64,000 bases of DNA from a virus (lineage: Duplodnaviria; Heunggongvirae; Uroviricota; Caudoviricetes). Made by a program: the position numbers and the translations under genes. Below the pieces are notes generated by a model. The model ran no database searches and was not told where the DNA came from. It saw nothing but the letters and a program-made list of their open reading frames with translations. Shown here in pieces: positions 28,060 to 38,486 of the stretch. The first letter of the stretch is position 1, and every line of letters starts with the position of its first letter. The stretch lies in IMG/VR virus record IMGVR_UViG_2713896798_000008; one strand, 5' to 3'.

Positions 28060-28136
28060 TGGCGCGTTGTACTGGATTCGAACCAGTGACCGATTGCTTA
28101 GAAGGCAATTGCTCTGTCCGGCTGAGCTAACAACGC
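28060..28136 (-). tRNA. argO: tRNA-Arg (anticodon UCU)
   Basis: Cloverleaf read manually: acceptor GCGTTGT/ACAACGC, anticodon loop CTTCTAA, T-loop GGTTCGAATCC, discriminator G plus CCA; 77 nt. Confidence 0.85.
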
Positions 28137-28216: not shown

Positions 28217-28292
28217 TGGTGGCCCTTGCTGGATTTGAACCAGCGACCTGGCGATTATGAGTCACTCGCTCTCACCACTGAGCTAAAGGGCC
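28217..28292 (-). tRNA. ileZ: tRNA with CAU anticodon (Ile2/lysidine type, ileZ-like, or Met)
   Basis: Cloverleaf read manually: GGCCCTT acceptor, CTCATAA anticodon loop, T-arm GCTGGTTCAAATCCAGC, CCA; similar to E. coli ileX. Confidence 0.85.
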
Positions 28293-29939: not shown

Positions 29940-29968
29940 AATATATGCTCTTCAGTTCTATTTTGCAA
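29940..29968 (-). promoter_or_regulatory. candidate late promoter pR' (sigma70 -35 TTGCAA, 17-bp spacer, -10 TATATT)
   Basis: Minus-strand hexamers at 29963..29968 and 29940..29945, immediately downstream of Q stop. Confidence 0.45.
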
Positions 29969-30647
29969 GATATGGTTCTAAATTAAGCGACTGTTGCCGT
30001 GATCGTACCCGCATTACTGAAATAAGAGCATCCCTGTCCAGCCCCTCTGCACTACCCCGCATAGCCAACCAGTGAGGCCTGTGTGTTGTTGTCCATGTAG
30101 ATTTAGCAACTCCCATCAACACCGCCAACGCCTGATGTTCATAGGTCTCACGCCCGACCAGCTCGCTCTTCACATCCTGTACAGCCAGCCAGATCAACCT
30201 CTTCAGGCGTTCCTGCGTTTTCCCCGCTATTTTTCTGGTACCGGATTGAGCCTTAAACTCACTCCATACCCACTGTGTTATGGTGACCTGATCTTCCCAG
30301 CAAACATTTCCACTGTAGCACCACAGTAACCACGCCTTCTGATGCTCTTCCAGTTCCAGAACGGCACGCCGCCACGATGATGTTGAAAACTCAACCGGAC
30401 TGACCAGAGGAATTGACGTCCCCTTCGCCAGCGATTGCTTTCCCGGGATTGGTGGATTATCCCGCGTTATCATTTTTCCAGTCACTTCATCGCGGTACCG
30501 GATTTTTTTTCGCCTGTAACGCCCTGTATCGAACATGGCATTCTCTTGCCAGGCTTCAAGCTGACCTTTTGTTGCCCCACTCAAATCAGCGGTGGCGATA
30601 ATGAGCTGCTCACGCACAAACTGTAAATACTGGTTATTCATGCGCAC
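29958..30647 (-). CDS. late-gene antiterminator Q-like protein
   Basis: Called by position (after rusA, directly before the pR'/tR' candidates); sequence family not recognised with certainty. Confidence 0.5.
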   Translation of the reverse strand: MRMNNQYLQFVREQLIIATADLSGATKGQLEAWQENAMFDTGRYRRKKIRYRDEVTGKMITRDNPPIPGKQSLAKGTSIPLVSPVEFSTSSWRRAVLELEEHQKAWLLWCYSGNVCWEDQVTITQWVWSEFKAQSGTRKIAGKTQERLKRLIWLAVQDVKSELVGRETYEHQALAVLMGVAKSTWTTTHRPHWLAMRGSAEGLDRDALISVMRVRSRQQSLNLEPYLAK

Positions 30648-30997
30648 TCCAGTTCTGTGATTTTTATCCCCAACCGCCCACCAGGAACGAGTTGACCGCG
30701 CACAATATTGATTTCATCAAACTGCTCGTCGTCTATGAGTAGTCCGGCATGCGTCAGCGCATCCAGTGGTGCTTTCAGGATATTGTCCAGGTCACGACGG
30801 CGCTTATCCGGTGGCTCTGCAATAATCTTTATCGCCAGCCTTCCGGACAGGTTTAATTTCAACCGCTGCTGGCGAACAATAAGCGCCACTGCCCGGCGAT
30901 AACGCTCCCCGGCTTTTGATACAAAATATGTGCTGCCACGGCGTCGCCAGTAAGTGTTCACTGTCGGCGGATAAGGTAAAACCAAATCTATGAGCAT
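30638..30997 (-). CDS. rusA: Holliday junction resolvase RusA
   Basis: 119 aa; RusA-family motifs (DKRRRDLDNILKAPLDALTHAG). Confidence 0.85.
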   Translation of the reverse strand: MLIDLVLPYPPTVNTYWRRRGSTYFVSKAGERYRRAVALIVRQQRLKLNLSGRLAIKIIAEPPDKRRRDLDNILKAPLDALTHAGLLIDDEQFDEINIVRGQLVPGGRLGIKITELECA

Positions 30998-31009
30998 CAG
31001 TCACCTCTT

Positions 31010-32059
31010 TTACCCGAGCACGCCAGTTGCAAAGGCGTGATCAAGAAAACGAAAAATTAACTCAACCTGGGAGCCGTACTTTTTCTCAAACTCCAGCGGG
31101 TCAGCATGAAGTTCGTTGTGATGTTCCCGGCACAACGGTAGCGTGAAAATATCGTGGGCCTTTGTTCCCATTCCCCCCTGACCATGACCAATCAGGTGAT
31201 GCGGATCGTCAGCTGGCTTACCACAACACGCACACGGCTGTGTCTTTACCCAGCGCGTGTATTTCTCATTAACCCAACGGCGACGTTTAGGCCGCCTCAT
31301 GAACGATTCAGGAGACTCCGGATCAACAGCGATACTGACAACCGTTTTTTTCTGTGGTGGATTTTGTTGCTGGTGGACGTGAAGTGGCAGCGCAATATTT
31401 TTTGTGCGCTGCTTCAGTATGCTGATGGCTGTCTGTTCTCCCGGTACGATGTCACTCTCACGGTATACGGAGCGGATTTTTTCCGCTGGTAATCCCAGCG
31501 AACGACGCGCTACTGCCTCAGGCAGTGCATCCACCACCTGATTGCAGGCCGCCCACCAGGATAATTCGGCCAGCGATAACTCCCTCTCCTGCGTACCGCT
31601 TATTGCGTGACGGATGACGTCAATCATCCAGGCAACCAGATTCTGCTGAGCAAGTTGATCGAGTGATTCTGATGTCTGGTCGCGCAGCTGGTTGTCACAG
31701 TGCCAGCACAACACCATCGCGCCGGTACCGTAACGGTGAATGACGGTTTCGCTGTGATGATAATCGCCATGTGGCCACTGGCAGGATTTCACTTGACGTA
31801 ATAACCAGTCAGACAGTGCACCAGCGCCACCCGCAGCACAAATCACCCGTTCGTTGCTGAAAAATGGCAGTAATGTTTTATCCTCTGCCAGCGGCTGTCG
31901 AACGGCAGGAACGACTCCGGACGGCAGACCGCGCATGTTTTTCGGTTCCGGCTCCACCAATATTCTGCCGTTATGGAATGCTGACATTGATTCACGGCCC
32001 GGCTTTAGGAGCACCATCCCGAGTTCCGGTACCAGAACAGGTCGAAGTAATACCCGCAC
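31010..32059 (-). CDS. DUF968 (YdfU-like) protein with C-terminal HNH-like motif
   Basis: Paralogue of 56161..57249; CACCGKPADDPHHLIGHGQGG...CREHHNELH. Confidence 0.75.
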   Translation of the reverse strand: MRVLLRPVLVPELGMVLLKPGRESMSAFHNGRILVEPEPKNMRGLPSGVVPAVRQPLAEDKTLLPFFSNERVICAAGGAGALSDWLLRQVKSCQWPHGDYHHSETVIHRYGTGAMVLCWHCDNQLRDQTSESLDQLAQQNLVAWMIDVIRHAISGTQERELSLAELSWWAACNQVVDALPEAVARRSLGLPAEKIRSVYRESDIVPGEQTAISILKQRTKNIALPLHVHQQQNPPQKKTVVSIAVDPESPESFMRRPKRRRWVNEKYTRWVKTQPCACCGKPADDPHHLIGHGQGGMGTKAHDIFTLPLCREHHNELHADPLEFEKKYGSQVELIFRFLDHAFATGVLG

Positions 32060-32060
32060 G

Positions 32061-32339
32061 TTACCTCCAGATGCGCTGCTGGAATGTGCGGGACGGACGC
32101 GGTGGGCGTTCGGAATAAGGGAGCCTGACGGAGATTATCCAGTGACGACGATCGAAGCTGAGATCTTTCTGAAACTCGTAACCACGTCTGCGGTAGCACT
32201 GAATCAGCCATTCGGCCTGTTCTTCAGTGCATGGGTCATGCCGGAACCAGTCAGATTTGAATGCATGAGAACGCCGCCCGTGCCTGCTGGCAGGGGCGGC
32301 AGAGTTATCCGAATTGTAAAATCTGGTATCGTGCGCCAT
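32061..32339 (-). CDS. Rem-like small protein
   Basis: Paralogue of 57212..57490 (…RHWIISVRLPYSERPP…); ATG at 32339 assumed. Confidence 0.5.
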   Translation of the reverse strand: MAHDTRFYNSDNSAAPASRHGRRSHAFKSDWFRHDPCTEEQAEWLIQCYRRRGYEFQKDLSFDRRHWIISVRLPYSERPPRPSRTFQQRIWR

Positions 32340-32454
32340 CAGTTTTCTCTGCTGACGCAGCAGGTGCCAGTTGTTCAGGCTGGCGTGCGAATTGTAAACC
32401 AGAATGCAAGGAAAAAACAAAACCCGCCGAAGCGGGTTTTCATTGGAAGCACCT

Positions 32455-32949
32455 TTAGTTTTGCTGTTCTATTTTAAGCTTGATAGTTTCATACAAAACA
32501 ATAGTTGCGCCTGTTTTACATAATTCCCGGCTGTCATATGCACGAGACCAATAACACAACCAGTTCTCGAGATCTTCTCGAGTATAGGTTTTGCAGGCCA
32601 GTCCCTCTGCCATTTCCACGATTTCATCGCCTGGTGCTGTTAACTCATAGCCATTCAACAACAAGAAGACGTAACCAGCCATCATAGCTGTTCGTTTGTT
32701 CGCATTCGCAAACGGATGATTCTGAATCAGACTTTCAATCAATACCGATGCCAGTACAAACATGTCATTGATCTGTTTATACCATCGAACCATGCTGGGA
32801 CGGGCCTGAGAAGAACTTAAGTTATCTGGACTCAGAACACCAACGGGTTCATCTGGCGTCTGTAATTCAATTAGGGAACGATTGATTTCAACAAGATCAT
32901 CAACCGTAAGGTAATGCACTCCTTCAACAATCTCAGCCATAGAGCACAA
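32455..32949 (-). CDS. Doc-family (Fic fold) toxin
   Basis: Doc-type motif HPFANANKR (HxFx[DN][AG]NKR); 164 aa. Confidence 0.8.
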   Translation of the reverse strand: MCSMAEIVEGVHYLTVDDLVEINRSLIELQTPDEPVGVLSPDNLSSSQARPSMVRWYKQINDMFVLASVLIESLIQNHPFANANKRTAMMAGYVFLLLNGYELTAPGDEIVEMAEGLACKTYTREDLENWLCYWSRAYDSRELCKTGATIVLYETIKLKIEQQN

Positions 32950-32958
32950 TACCCATCA

Positions 32959-33138
32959 TTACACTTTTGAAAGTTCTTCCATTGCCTTCTCGTAACGAGA
33001 AAAACCGAAATCGAAAGCATTTTTCACCTGCTCACGATGAGTGCAGTTTTCATCAATCGCCGGGCGAGGGGCTGCCACAACTCGTTTGTCGCGAGGCGGA
33101 ATATTTAGCCGTGTGTGTTTCTTGAGTGCGTAGCTCAT
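32959..33138 (-). CDS. putative cognate antitoxin of Doc-family toxin (family unrecognised)
   Basis: 59-aa ORF (MSYALKKHTRLNIPP...) 10 bp upstream of the toxin on the same strand; ATG at 33138, track start is TTG. Confidence 0.4.
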   Translation of the reverse strand: MSYALKKHTRLNIPPRDKRVVAAPRPAIDENCTHREQVKNAFDFGFSRYEKAMEELSKV

Positions 33139-33469
33139 CTTGTCGTTTCCCTTGAAGTTCTTTTGGCAAGGCCAACGCACCAACCTGGCGCGTAATTAAT
33201 GGTGTAGTACTAAGGTTAGATTAGTCTAATGCGGATAAAAATTTTTAGCTACCAAAACGACACTTTTGGTTCCTCCACCCCAATGTTAAAATAAGCCATC
33301 CGCCCCGCTCTCTTACTGGCGGATTCGTAAGCTATATAAATCAAAGATCCCGGCTCATGTTTGTGTCGGGATCTTTTTTTTACGGTGATTTATCCCCAGC
33401 GGCAAATCGAATACACCACCAGCGCCACCGCCATCGCAATTCCTGCCGTTGTGAATGCTTCAGGCCTGG

Positions 33470-36316: not shown

Positions 36317-37063
36317 TTACTTCACAACCCTCTGATTGCTGACATTTGGACGCCAGCTATCCCAGTTAAACGTCACCCATCGACCACCGTTCATGGTCAT
36401 GCGGTCCATAATCCTCTCACCGAGAAGCGTACTCATTGCGGCATGATTCAGGTTTGTTAACATCCCGACACTGCACAGTGATGCTGTCCGGCGATCAATT
36501 ATCTGGTGCAATACCACCTGCTCGTTTTTCGTCTCACGCTGAACGCCTATTTCATCCAGGACCAGCAAATCAACCCCGCAAAGCTCCTGTAAAAATTTTT
36601 CCCCGGACTGGCCGTTGTCGTAGCTGTCATGCAACACACTCATGACGTCAGACACGGTGACGATAATCACGCTGCTCCCCTTCGCCATCAGCCGGTTGCC
36701 CATCGCCGCTGCAAGGTGATTTTTCCCGGTGCCGGTTTTACCGCTGAACACAAAATTCGTGCACCCGGTCATCAGTTCGTCAGCGATGGATTTTGCCTGG
36801 CTCAGCGCGTGTTTTTGCCCGTCGTTCTGCACCTGATAATTCGCAAACGAGCATTTGCTGTGCAGAGGCTGGATGCCCGAACGATTCAGGATTTTTTCCA
36901 CCCGCAACTGGCGATTCTGGCGGTTAATCTCCTCGCTGCGTTTTCGTCCTTCAGCAAGCTGCCATTCCCGCCACTCCTCCACCGTCCGGTACGGTGGAAC
37001 CGCCCCCTGTGGTGCAAGTCTGCGAATACGTTCAAGAACCCCGGCTGCCGCAATGTTTTTCAT
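36317..37063 (-). CDS. DnaC-like helicase loader (IstB-type ATPase, YdaV-like)
   Basis: Walker A GKTGTGKNHLAAA and Walker B LLVLDEIG. Confidence 0.85.
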   Translation of the reverse strand: MKNIAAAGVLERIRRLAPQGAVPPYRTVEEWREWQLAEGRKRSEEINRQNRQLRVEKILNRSGIQPLHSKCSFANYQVQNDGQKHALSQAKSIADELMTGCTNFVFSGKTGTGKNHLAAAMGNRLMAKGSSVIIVTVSDVMSVLHDSYDNGQSGEKFLQELCGVDLLVLDEIGVQRETKNEQVVLHQIIDRRTASLCSVGMLTNLNHAAMSTLLGERIMDRMTMNGGRWVTFNWDSWRPNVSNQRVVK

Positions 37064-37069
37064 GCCACG

Positions 37070-38053
37070 TCACCCCCTGAATCCAGGCGGTATTTCAGTG
37101 TCCGGTTCAGAAATGTGATTCACGCAACGATGCTCGGGCGAACGCCCCAGGCGGATAACCAGTTCATCCCATTTTTCCCGGAGTTTTGCCGGACTCATGA
37201 TGTTTTTTACCCAGAACGAATCCCGCTGGACACGCCCAAACATTTCACAAATCTGCCGGTGACTACGTCCATCCAGCATACGCATCATGCGCACATCATT
37301 CGCCCAGGTCGTCCAGTTAGGTTCTCGGGGGCGTGACACCTCACCATCATCACTGGCGGCCTGTTCATACAACGCCACAACCCGTCCCCAAATCCACTGC
37401 GCACAGGCGACATCCTCACGGGTACCCCACTGTCGCTTCGGTACATTCCAGGTATGCGCATCCGGGTGTTTCTCCAGAAATCGCTCAACTGGTGATGATT
37501 GTTTTTCGTCCGGCAGTGAAAGGTCCGGACAAGAAGATCTTTTATCTGACGGATCAGGTTTTAATACTGACGGATCGGGGTCAATCATCGCCCCCCTAAT
37601 CGGCAGTTTTTTATCAACCGTTGATCCATCAAAATTTGACGGGTCAACCGTTGAGGGGTCAATATTTGACGGGTCAACTATTAACGGGTCATTTTTTGCC
37701 GGGCTAATTTTTCTTTTCGGTTTATATGACTCACGCGCCGCCGCCGCAGCTGCTTCGAGTTTTTCCACATTAAGCCGATAGATATTGCTTACATTACGCC
37801 CACCGACCTTACGCTCTTCCTTCGTCAGCCAGCCCTCTTTCGCCAGTTCTGCAATAGCCGATTTCACGGTGGATTCACTTCTTGCACCGATCTGACGCCG
37901 GATAGTTTCAATAGCAGGCCATGACACGCCCTCGTCATTGCTGTAGTCTGCAAGACGGGCCATCACTGCCACCCGGGATAAGATCATGCCGGTGAAGGCG
38001 CATCCTTCCCAGACAAGACCATGAAGCTTGCTGCTCATAAAACCCCCGAACAC
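37070..38053 (-). CDS. replication initiator (lambda O-like / YdaU-like) containing origin iterons
   Basis: N-terminal replisome-organiser-like region; internal repeated DPS(N/T)(I/V)D peptides encoded by the iterons. Confidence 0.7.
   Translation of the reverse strand: MFGGFMSSKLHGLVWEGCAFTGMILSRVAVMARLADYSNDEGVSWPAIETIRRQIGARSESTVKSAIAELAKEGWLTKEERKVGGRNVSNIYRLNVEKLEAAAAAARESYKPKRKISPAKNDPLIVDPSNIDPSTVDPSNFDGSTVDKKLPIRGAMIDPDPSVLKPDPSDKRSSCPDLSLPDEKQSSPVERFLEKHPDAHTWNVPKRQWGTREDVACAQWIWGRVVALYEQAASDDGEVSRPREPNWTTWANDVRMMRMLDGRSHRQICEMFGRVQRDSFWVKNIMSPAKLREKWDELVIRLGRSPEHRCVNHISEPDTEIPPGFRG
37615..37690. repeat. origin-like iterons (about 5 copies of a TTGACGGGTCAA-like 12-mer) followed by an AT-rich tract
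   Basis: ttgatccatcaa / tgacgggtcaac x2 / ttgaggggtcaa / ttaacgggtcat, then attttttgccgggctaattttt. Confidence 0.5.
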
Positions 38054-38060
38054 CGTGCAG

Positions 38061-38486
38061 TTAGTGCATCACCACGGCATTTCCTGCCGGGCCGCCGCGA
38101 TTCATCTGGTCATACAAAACAACCGCTGACGCAACAAAATCGTCGACATCTTTCACCAGCCGATCCCGCCGTTCGACGATCTCACGGTAATACTCAGAAC
38201 TGTGGCTGCGCATACGGGCCACCAGCAAAGGCGGCATCGCCTTTTCGATCGCTGGTAACAGAGCCTGAATTTTTTCAACAGCATCAGGGGTGTCTTTATC
38301 CAGCCAACGGAAAATTTTCTGGGTATTACGGGCCAGGGCTTCCGGATGACTGTCGTCGTACAGTTCCGGGAACGTCATCCCCAGCTCGAAATACGCTTTG
38401 GTAATTTTCGCAGCCGGTACTTTTTCGCCGTCCGGATGCGCCCAGGCATTCATCGCCATGCGGATGTGTTCATGCTTGATTTTCAT
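38061..38486 (-). CDS. YdaT-like protein (cII position)
   Basis: 141 aa downstream of cro-like gene, Rac ydaS-ydaT arrangement. Confidence 0.55.
   Translation of the reverse strand: MKIKHEHIRMAMNAWAHPDGEKVPAAKITKAYFELGMTFPELYDDSHPEALARNTQKIFRWLDKDTPDAVEKIQALLPAIEKAMPPLLVARMRSHSSEYYREIVERRDRLVKDVDDFVASAVVLYDQMNRGGPAGNAVVMH

Follow-up and report, generated by a model that had tools for sequence, protein, structure and literature searches.

Does a 59-amino-acid protein of no recognised family, encoded directly upstream of a Doc-family toxin gene in an Escherichia coli prophage, act as the antitoxin of that toxin? The question is raised by a stretch of 64,000 nucleotides from IMG/VR virus record IMGVR_UViG_2713896798_000008 (Caudoviricetes; hereafter the window), whose host is E. 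coli and in which the two genes lie in the nin region of a lambdoid prophage. Doc is a classic toxin family and a model for antitoxin action, and to our knowledge every characterised Doc antitoxin has a folded domain (YefM/Phd, AbrB-like beta-dome or Panacea) at its N-terminus, ahead of the helix that neutralises Doc from the C-terminal end. A first reading made from the letters, referred to here as the sequence-only reading, could not place the small open reading frame (ORF) in a known antitoxin family and proposed a new antitoxin class or a phage-defence module. Our best explanation, to which we assign a probability of roughly 0.7, is that the two genes are a self-contained type II Doc cassette, a moron in the nin region, in which a 'headless' 59-amino-acid antitoxin would neutralise Doc by a Phd-C-like helix. 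The argument turns on the following features.

32959..33138 (stop included), minus strand: small ORF, 59 amino acids (MSYALKK...EELSKV), putative Doc antitoxin, RefSeq WP_000119357.1
33085..33102, minus strand: codons of IPxRDK (I13-P14-P15-R16-D17-K18), an N-terminal linear motif, from the family alignment
32968..33039, minus strand: codons of the predicted C-terminal amphipathic helix, residues 34–57, from AlphaFold2 and conservation
32455..32940 (stop included), minus strand: Doc-family toxin, 161 amino acids, RefSeq WP_000818169.1
32692..32718, minus strand: codons of HPFANANKR, Doc residues 75–83, from the sequence and the homologue alignment

Both ORFs were found at the coordinates given by the sequence-only reading, on the minus strand, but its toxin of 164 residues and its spacing of about 10 nt had to be corrected. 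The ORF listing starts Doc at TTG 32949 (164 amino acids); the homologues begin with MAE(I/F)VEG and the RefSeq start is ATG 32940 (161 amino acids), so that the gap from the stop codon of the small ORF to the start of Doc is 18 nt in the window, compared with 3–22 nt in homologues. The two genes share one reading frame, with tandem TAA TGA stops and five codons between them (32959–32940); since the frames differ and the gaps range from 3 to 22 nt in other lineages, the common frame in the window is probably incidental.

Judged by its sequence, the toxin is a clear and ordinary member of the Doc family. It matched the NCBIfam model TIGR01550 (DOC_P1) at 5e-37 and 126.8 bits (cutoff 38.65) over model positions 2–122 of 122 and the Pfam Fic/DOC family PF02661 at 1.5e-11 and 45.4 bits (cutoff 24), it belongs to phrog_577 ('Doc-like toxin'), and its nearest solved relatives by sequence were Enterococcus faecalis Doc (9VZC, 3e-13) and P1 Doc (3K33, 3.6e-5). 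In agreement with these matches, the motif HPFANANKR, described at the outset as canonical, is present at residues 75–83 and fits the Doc variant of the Fic motif, HxFx(D/N)(A/G)NKR (definition from PMC13034048). Residues H75, F77, A78, N79, N81, K82 and R83 were invariant in an alignment of 19 Doc homologues, and the motif is also kept in the Doc relatives of Pseudomonas, Marinobacter and Streptococcus. Past the end of P1 Doc, this clade carries a C-terminal extension (residues ~127–161, window 32455–32561), in which W127, L128, W131, R133, D136, L140 and C141 were invariant (alignment A2) and the conserved part is followed by a variable tail.

Purifying selection marks the small ORF as a genuine coding gene. 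Its dN/dS was 0.105 (0.245 for codons 1–33 and 0.064 for codons 34–59) compared with 0.066 for Doc, and a Shine-Dalgarno sequence upstream of it is kept in most lineages. The ORF listing extends it to TTG 33183 (74 amino acids); conservation starts at ATG 33138, and the translation of 33138..32959 is MSYALKKHTRLNIPPRDKRVVAAPRPAIDENCTHREQVKNAFDFGFSRYEKAMEELSKV. A word-seeded search gave 17 clusters of the family, and a profile search of 1.84 billion proteins gave 38 clusters at 50% identity with full-length matches, all of them stand-alone proteins of 38–95 amino acids once a single spurious, repetitive protein of 2,917 amino acids was excluded; no fusion to a DNA-binding or other domain occurred among the 38. 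The public names of these proteins are all 'hypothetical' or 'bacteriophage protein', and the sole classification of the small ORF was phrog_2208, 'unknown function'. At a threshold as lax as E<=1, neither Pfam nor NCBIfam matched the small ORF, Pfam likewise gave no match for any of 33 diverse family members, and the family profile returned chance matches only from the PDB and matched no chain of 9VZC even at E<=10.

The sequence-only reading had made conservation of the small ORF with the toxin the test of their pairing, and the two proved to be inherited together in every set examined. Doc followed 10–22 nt downstream at 80 of 80 IMG/VR loci retrieved via the small ORF. In the reverse direction, where loci were retrieved via Doc with one genome per species, all 33 of the gammaproteobacterial Doc relatives (from 72% down to 38% identity; Serratia, Yersinia, Providencia, Morganella, Xenorhabdus, Arsenophonus, Gilliamella/Orbaceae, Pseudomonas, Halomonas, Kushneria and Marinobacter among them) had a homologue of 55–59 amino acids directly upstream. 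The 684-nt cassette was present in 125 of 5,426 complete E. coli genomes, with both genes entire in 125/125, at 129 chromosomal places and none on plasmids; a plasmid search gave no genuine match. Across 111 loci, identity to the respective window copy was correlated between the two proteins (r=0.95). The small ORF is thus a strictly co-inherited partner of this Doc clade. The nearest Doc relatives outside the Gammaproteobacteria (Streptococcus) pair instead with a 78-amino-acid AbrB-type antitoxin, for which the PDB held no solved relative.

A scan of viral contigs yielded 118 relatives. Sequenced phages carrying the cassette are rare (Salmonella phage SW-37 and Pseudomonas phages Sirocco and LPPA56), and in Sirocco (locus L161, 2450–3181), which is classified in Peduoviridae, and LPPA56 (locus L162, 2501–3175) it lies not in a nin region but at the prophage end adjoining the integrase. 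Both cassette genes of LPPA56 are annotated 'hypothetical', Doc itself being left unannotated. No paper on this prophage cassette was found in the literature.

The predicted fold of the small protein consists of one helix. AlphaFold2, run on a 15-sequence alignment, placed it at residues 34–57 (block-mean pLDDT 81–92), and gave residues 1–33 no secondary structure except a three-residue turn at 6–8 (block-mean pLDDT 59–72). The model contained no DNA-binding fold and no beta strands, and the protein is too short for a YefM/Phd, AbrB/SpoVT, ribbon-helix-helix or helix-turn-helix domain, of which it shows no sign. Conservation, counted over 83 distinct family members, was concentrated in two places. 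In the N-terminal half, I13 and P14 were each kept in 77/83, R16 in 82/83, D17 in 70/83 and K18 in 62/83. On one face of the helix, the conserved positions were V38, A41 (82/83), F42 (65/83), F46 (67/83), Y49 (79/83), A52 and L56 (83/83), position 53 was hydrophobic in 83/83, and exactly three residues followed L56 in 82/83. The hydrophobic stripe of the predicted helix is F42-F46-Y49-M53-L56.

This stripe can be compared with what is established for Phd. A 22-residue peptide, Phd(52–73) of Salmonella Typhimurium, binds Doc with a Kd of 73 pM, blocks phosphorylation of EF-Tu and restores growth; the hot spots in it are F56, I59, M60, H63, L67 and L70, and inactivation depends on two of them, the 'gatekeepers' F56 and L70 (PMC9207808). 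In the E. faecalis system, the concave face of Doc takes up a bent helix made of antitoxin residues 52–79 (PDB 9VZC), and the characterised Doc antitoxins have no detectable similarity among themselves (PMC13034048). Phd-C is a portable neutralising element, active when fused to Panacea or SUMO, and the isolated Phd-C is inactive in vivo without a stabilising tag (PMC10440598), which makes a natural stand-alone version noteworthy. In an ungapped C-terminal alignment, the hot spots of Salmonella Phd fell on F42, G45, F46, Y49, M53 and L56 of the small protein; the five residues of the stripe pair with Phd F56, M60, H/L63, L/N67 and L70. Both gatekeepers were identical and equally spaced (F42...L56 against F56...L70 of Phd), and Glu-Leu at positions −5/−4 was common to the small protein, P1 Phd and S. 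Typhimurium Phd. The tails of the Streptococcus AbrB-type antitoxins show the same register, L-x3-F-x2-Y-x3-F-x2-L-x3. Shuffled versions of the small protein reproduced the hot-spot pattern at a frequency of 6e-5 (strict) or 1.6e-3 (hydrophobic only).

Several observations weigh against this interpretation. The hot spot I59 of Phd corresponds to Gly45 in the small protein. The shuffle frequencies flatter the match, since the pattern was picked out post hoc and amphipathic helices of any kind tend to show it. Comparison of the small-ORF family with P1 Phd and the Streptococcus antitoxin by hhalign was not significant (P 0.02–0.07): the P1 Phd alignment had a probability of 2% and preferred another register (Phd residues 41–51), and that with the AbrB-type antitoxin (P=0.067) covered the 13 C-terminal residues only. 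Non-significance is unsurprising for some 20 residues; since the profile comparison was not significant, we claim a pattern in common and do not claim homology. The IPxRDK motif is conserved as strongly as the helix and is left unexplained by a pure Phd-C model. On the side of the toxin, the AlphaFold2 monomer of Doc, built from a shallow alignment, was of low confidence (pLDDT 55), and on the side of expression, no sigma-70 consensus was found in the window between a terminator-like hairpin further upstream and the ATG of the small ORF. Taking both sides together, the register of residues 34–59 makes a Phd-C-like neutralising helix with a Phd-C-like binding mode somewhat better than an even bet, by analogy with Phd. 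The proposal of a 'new antitoxin class' therefore survives in part: the family lacks a DNA-binding domain and has a conserved N-terminal motif, but the term is overstated, because a C-terminal helix with the hydrophobic register of Phd-C means that the mechanism of neutralisation is probably the familiar one.

The low-confidence Doc model was used for a coarse Foldseek check only, in which the top matches were the P1 Doc chains 3K33_A and 3DD7_A (probability 1.00, target-normalised TM 0.56). VbhT-VbhA and Bep1-BiaA appeared among the weaker matches, and the small protein resembles the FicA/VbhA/YhfG kind of antitoxin in size (55–62 amino acids), in its gene position upstream and in having a partner from the Fic/Doc superfamily. 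Antitoxins of that kind would act by the glutamate of an (S/T)xxxE(G/N) helix, which keeps ATP from binding productively in the active site of Fic. However, this motif occurred at no conserved column of the small-ORF alignments A1 and A3, and the sole E-N pair of the small protein (E30-N31) lies in the variable linker with Pro at position −4. Neither YhfG nor any other Pfam family matched the 33 diverse members, and the toxin motif is the Doc kinase version (K82) rather than the Fic AMPylase version. We consider such an assignment very improbable.

Another origin to be weighed is that the small ORF was once a full Phd/YefM or AbrB-type antitoxin gene and is now decaying towards loss, its DNA-binding domain already truncated away. 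The resemblance of its C-terminal register to the tails of Phd and of AbrB-type Doc antitoxins would fit such a history, as would the use of a 78-amino-acid AbrB-type antitoxin by the nearest non-gammaproteobacterial relatives. On the other hand, an architecture of 50–60 amino acids is stable from Enterobacterales to Marinobacter (83 distinct sequences, 38 clusters at 50% identity), purifying selection also acts on the N-terminal half (dN/dS 0.245), where IPxRDK is near-invariant, and no residual similarity to the N-domains of Phd/YefM or AbrB was detected. Conservation largely refutes the idea of a decaying remnant, which we regard as scarcely credible. The small ORF stands, as first judged, outside the Phd/YefM, AbrB/SpoVT and YhfG/FicA families, in view of the missing Pfam and NCBIfam matches, the non-significant hhalign result and a predicted fold without such a domain.

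Regarding the IPxRDK segment, it may be a second functional element, either a pseudosubstrate of the Doc active site or a degron or sensor that releases Doc on phage infection or prophage loss; we see this as a long shot. The sequence of EF-Tu around the acceptor is ...G-G-R-T382-V..., which IPxRDK loosely echoes with Asp in place of the acceptor Thr, a match of two residues only. If the two-site reading is true, the cassette would be a DNA-binding-free, two-site Doc switch, a control mode not described for Phd-Doc systems.

Returning to the headless antitoxin as our preferred explanation, it would work as follows. The Doc kinase, by homology, would phosphorylate EF-Tu on Thr382 and translation would stop. 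Residues 34–59 of the small protein would form a single amphipathic helix docking into the groove of Doc as Phd-C does, with F42 and L56 standing in for the Phd gatekeepers F56 and L70. The segment 1–33 would be extended and Pro/Arg-rich and bear IPxRDK, which we would guess either makes a second contact on Doc, where the C-terminal extension of this Doc clade might be involved, or serves as a handle for proteolysis, sensing or regulation. The small ORF and doc would be co-transcribed and closely coupled. The analysis itself establishes that the small ORF is a real gene, that its partner belongs to the Doc family, that the two are strictly paired, co-evolve and are under purifying selection, and that the fold predicted for the small protein is a disordered segment plus a helix. 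Toxicity, neutralisation, binding mode and benefit to the prophage are what we infer, and a functional Doc toxin-antitoxin pair with the 59-amino-acid protein as antitoxin appears distinctly likely.

How such a pair is expressed and controlled can be approached from its flanks, which contain the following features.

33337..33382, unstranded: terminator-like hairpin upstream of the cassette, from a repeat search and reading of the sequence
33139..33336, minus strand: 5' non-coding region of ~200 nt, in which a promoter would be expected
32419..32440, minus strand: intrinsic terminator AAAACCCGC-TTCG-GCGGGTTTT followed by a T-run, from a terminator scan

The upstream hairpin, situated between the preceding gene (end 33470) and the cassette, has 21-nt arms of 81% complementarity around a 4-nt loop and is flanked by an A-run and, on the opposite side, a T-run; because of its stem mismatches it is absent from a consensus terminator scan. 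Downstream, the strong intrinsic terminator (32440..32419) begins 15 nt past the Doc stop codon. The pair is thus bracketed by a hairpin upstream and a terminator downstream, a moron-like layout. Rfam gave nothing above the gathering score, its weak matches being driven by the terminator hairpin. Within the 5' region of the window lie a TTAGA-ctaa-TCTAA palindrome (33216–33230) that includes an ATTAGAC motif (33224–33230), and an ACCAAAA/TTTTGGT hairpin (33251–33270).

ATTAGAC recurs upstream of homologues (loci L052, L090 and L032), but upstream regions are mosaic between lineages and a conserved operator could not be defined; among E. coli variants, similarity to the window begins at the ATG of the small ORF. 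In several lineages, palindromes overlap good sigma-70 promoters situated 60–100 nt upstream of the small ORF, for instance TTGACT-17-CATTAT around the perfect palindrome AATGAAA-cttaac-TTTCATT in Providencia/Morganella (L085, L096, L083, L089, L086) and GGATGT-gttt-ACATCC at the promoter of the L065-type viral-contig loci. Palindromes thus overlap promoters in homologues, yet the partner protein has no predicted DNA-binding domain, and classical autoregulation by the antitoxin alone is for that reason not expected. At the junction of the two genes, most lineages have AAGGT in the last codons of the small ORF (…K-V-stop), 3–15 nt before the doc start, and this Shine-Dalgarno sequence inside the end of the small ORF points to translational coupling to doc.

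These features bear on whether the small protein might be a co-regulated accessory with a regulatory, chaperone or specificity function, or one of three components of a system whose true antitoxin or regulator is encoded elsewhere, on the model of paaR2-paaA2-parE2 in O157 prophages. With no predicted DNA-binding domain in the small protein, another factor may control transcription, and the palindromes over the good promoters of homologues must be bound by something. Nevertheless, the flanks of 112 loci had no third gene family in common, the commonest neighbour being confined to 40 loci of the E. coli lambdoid type; the cassette moves between lambdoid and P2-like phages as a two-gene unit; the tight spacing and the Shine-Dalgarno sequence within the end of the small ORF follow the standard layout of antitoxin-toxin pairs; and selection should act against an active Doc gene that has no antitoxin next to it. 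An accessory role is therefore improbable in our estimate.

The wider surroundings were taken from the RefSeq annotation of E. coli NZ_CP023673.1, used only over ~28.2–38.5 kb, a span collinear and near-identical with the window. In order of transcription, replication genes (36317–38038; a helix-turn-helix protein and an ATP-binding protein) are followed by small genes labelled hypothetical, DUF-domain or DNA-binding, then by WP_000119357.1 ('hypothetical protein', the small ORF) and WP_000818169.1 ('type II toxin-antitoxin system death-on-curing family toxin'), and downstream of Doc by DUF968, RusA and antiterminator Q (29958–32059). This order bears out the slot between the replication genes and rusA-Q of the nin region that had been assigned to the pair. 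RefSeq also places a 92-amino-acid hypothetical protein just downstream of Doc (32061–32339, minus strand) and a 70-amino-acid 'hypothetical protein' antisense to the 3' end of Doc and the terminator (32265–32477, plus strand); as it overlaps the terminator hairpin, the latter looks like an over-call.

In 40 of the 112 loci, a Hok/Gef-like type I toxin gene (…MKQQKAMLVALIVICITVVVTALVTRKDLCEVRIRTGQTEVAVFTAYEPEE) lies directly upstream (L006, ~210 nt upstream of the small ORF, and also L008–L024 and others), so that two toxin modules stand side by side in the nin region of other E. coli prophages. The upstream genes of this window differ from those of the Hok/Gef-carrying variants.

Regarding biological role, the pair may be mainly anti-phage (abortive infection or superinfection exclusion) or a prophage-addiction switch, with Doc freed when its labile partner is lost after infection or curing. 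This is compatible with the headless-antitoxin explanation, being a statement of biological role, and we hold it as a tentative possibility. The moron layout between terminators in an accessory slot is in keeping with it, as are the almost exclusively prophage-borne distribution, the hok-like type I toxin adjoining the cassette in other E. coli prophages, and the largely disordered structure predicted for the antitoxin, as is usual for labile antitoxins. Nothing in the defence models of PADLOC matched above noise: in PADLOC-DB v2 the small ORF had no match and Doc had partial, sub-threshold matches only, over the Fic motif (E 0.002–0.03). The literature search, in which no paper on the cassette was found, likewise lends this role no support.

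Further from the cassette, ARAGORN found two tRNA genes (28060–28136 and 28217–28292, minus strand), an Arg-TCT tRNA and a tRNA with a CAT anticodon, downstream of Q and a DNA methyltransferase gene; the otherwise near-identical RefSeq record carries three tRNAs there (Ile, Arg, Arg). The arrangement of tRNA, Q and methyltransferase genes is that of Stx-type lambdoid phages. In the repressor region, beside a small transcriptional regulator, the matching RefSeq record has a 'toxin YdaT family protein' (38061–38486, minus strand), at the limit of the span shared with NZ_CP023673.1; it would give this prophage a further putative toxin-like gene.

What is new here is a widespread, unnamed family of putative 'headless' Doc antitoxins, the toxin itself being ordinary. 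The evidence suggests that nature also uses an almost bare Doc-neutralising helix of 50–60 residues, widespread in prophages of Gammaproteobacteria. If true, this names an unannotated family and corrects the 'orphan Doc' look of the locus in 125 E. coli genomes and others, provides a natural minimal Doc inhibitor for the peptide-design work under way on Phd, and poses the question of how a type II module is regulated and its antitoxin destabilised when there is no DNA-binding domain. Confirmation would leave the accepted picture of Doc systems standing. The pair is a useful annotation and a neat minimal system, and it holds no surprise for the specialist unless the N-terminal motif has a new function.

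Among known systems, FicA(YhfG)-FicT and VbhA-VbhT (class I Fic) resemble the cassette in that a small helical antitoxin is encoded upstream of a toxin of the Fic/Doc superfamily; unlike FicA and VbhA, the small protein has neither (S/T)xxxE(G/N) nor a family match, and its toxin is of the Doc kinase type. In architecture the small protein resembles PaaA2, of the paaR2-paaA2-parE2 system in E. coli O157:H7 prophages, a prophage-borne antitoxin of ~63 amino acids that is largely disordered and has no DNA-binding domain. That system is, however, a three-component module with a ParE-family toxin and a dedicated third regulator gene, whereas no conserved third gene accompanies the Doc cassette at the 112 loci.

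Two phd-doc loci were considered as instances of the same cassette and rejected, that of Dickeya dadantii for its PHD-like antitoxin and overlapping genes and that of S. Typhimurium for its canonical 73-amino-acid Phd. The Phd-Doc systems of P1 and S. Typhimurium (3K33, 3DD7; PMC9207808) share with the cassette the probable fold family of the toxin, HxFx(D/N)(A/G)NKR, the antitoxin gene upstream and a C-terminal amphipathic helix of the form F...(14 residues)...L-x3-COOH. They differ in that Phd has 73 amino acids and an N-terminal YefM/Phd DNA-binding dimerisation domain, compared with 59 amino acids and no PF02604 match in the small protein, and in that P1 Doc has ~20–24% identity in the aligned core and the window Doc is ~35 residues longer at its C-terminus. 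In the Phd-Doc system of E. faecalis (9VZC; PMC13034048), the Doc is the closest solved one (E 3e-13) and the C-terminal helix of the antitoxin (52–79) neutralises it, but EFPhd carries an N-terminal beta-sheet 'beta-dome', a DNA-binding domain of a kind not predicted in the small protein, and promotes dimerisation of Doc. PanA(Phd-C)-Doc of Corynebacterium doosanense, from NetFlax (PMC10440598), is comparable in that the small protein resembles a Phd-C module on a minimal carrier; the carrier of PanA(Phd-C) is the globular Panacea domain, whereas that of the small protein is a 33-residue unstructured segment with the conserved IPxRDK.

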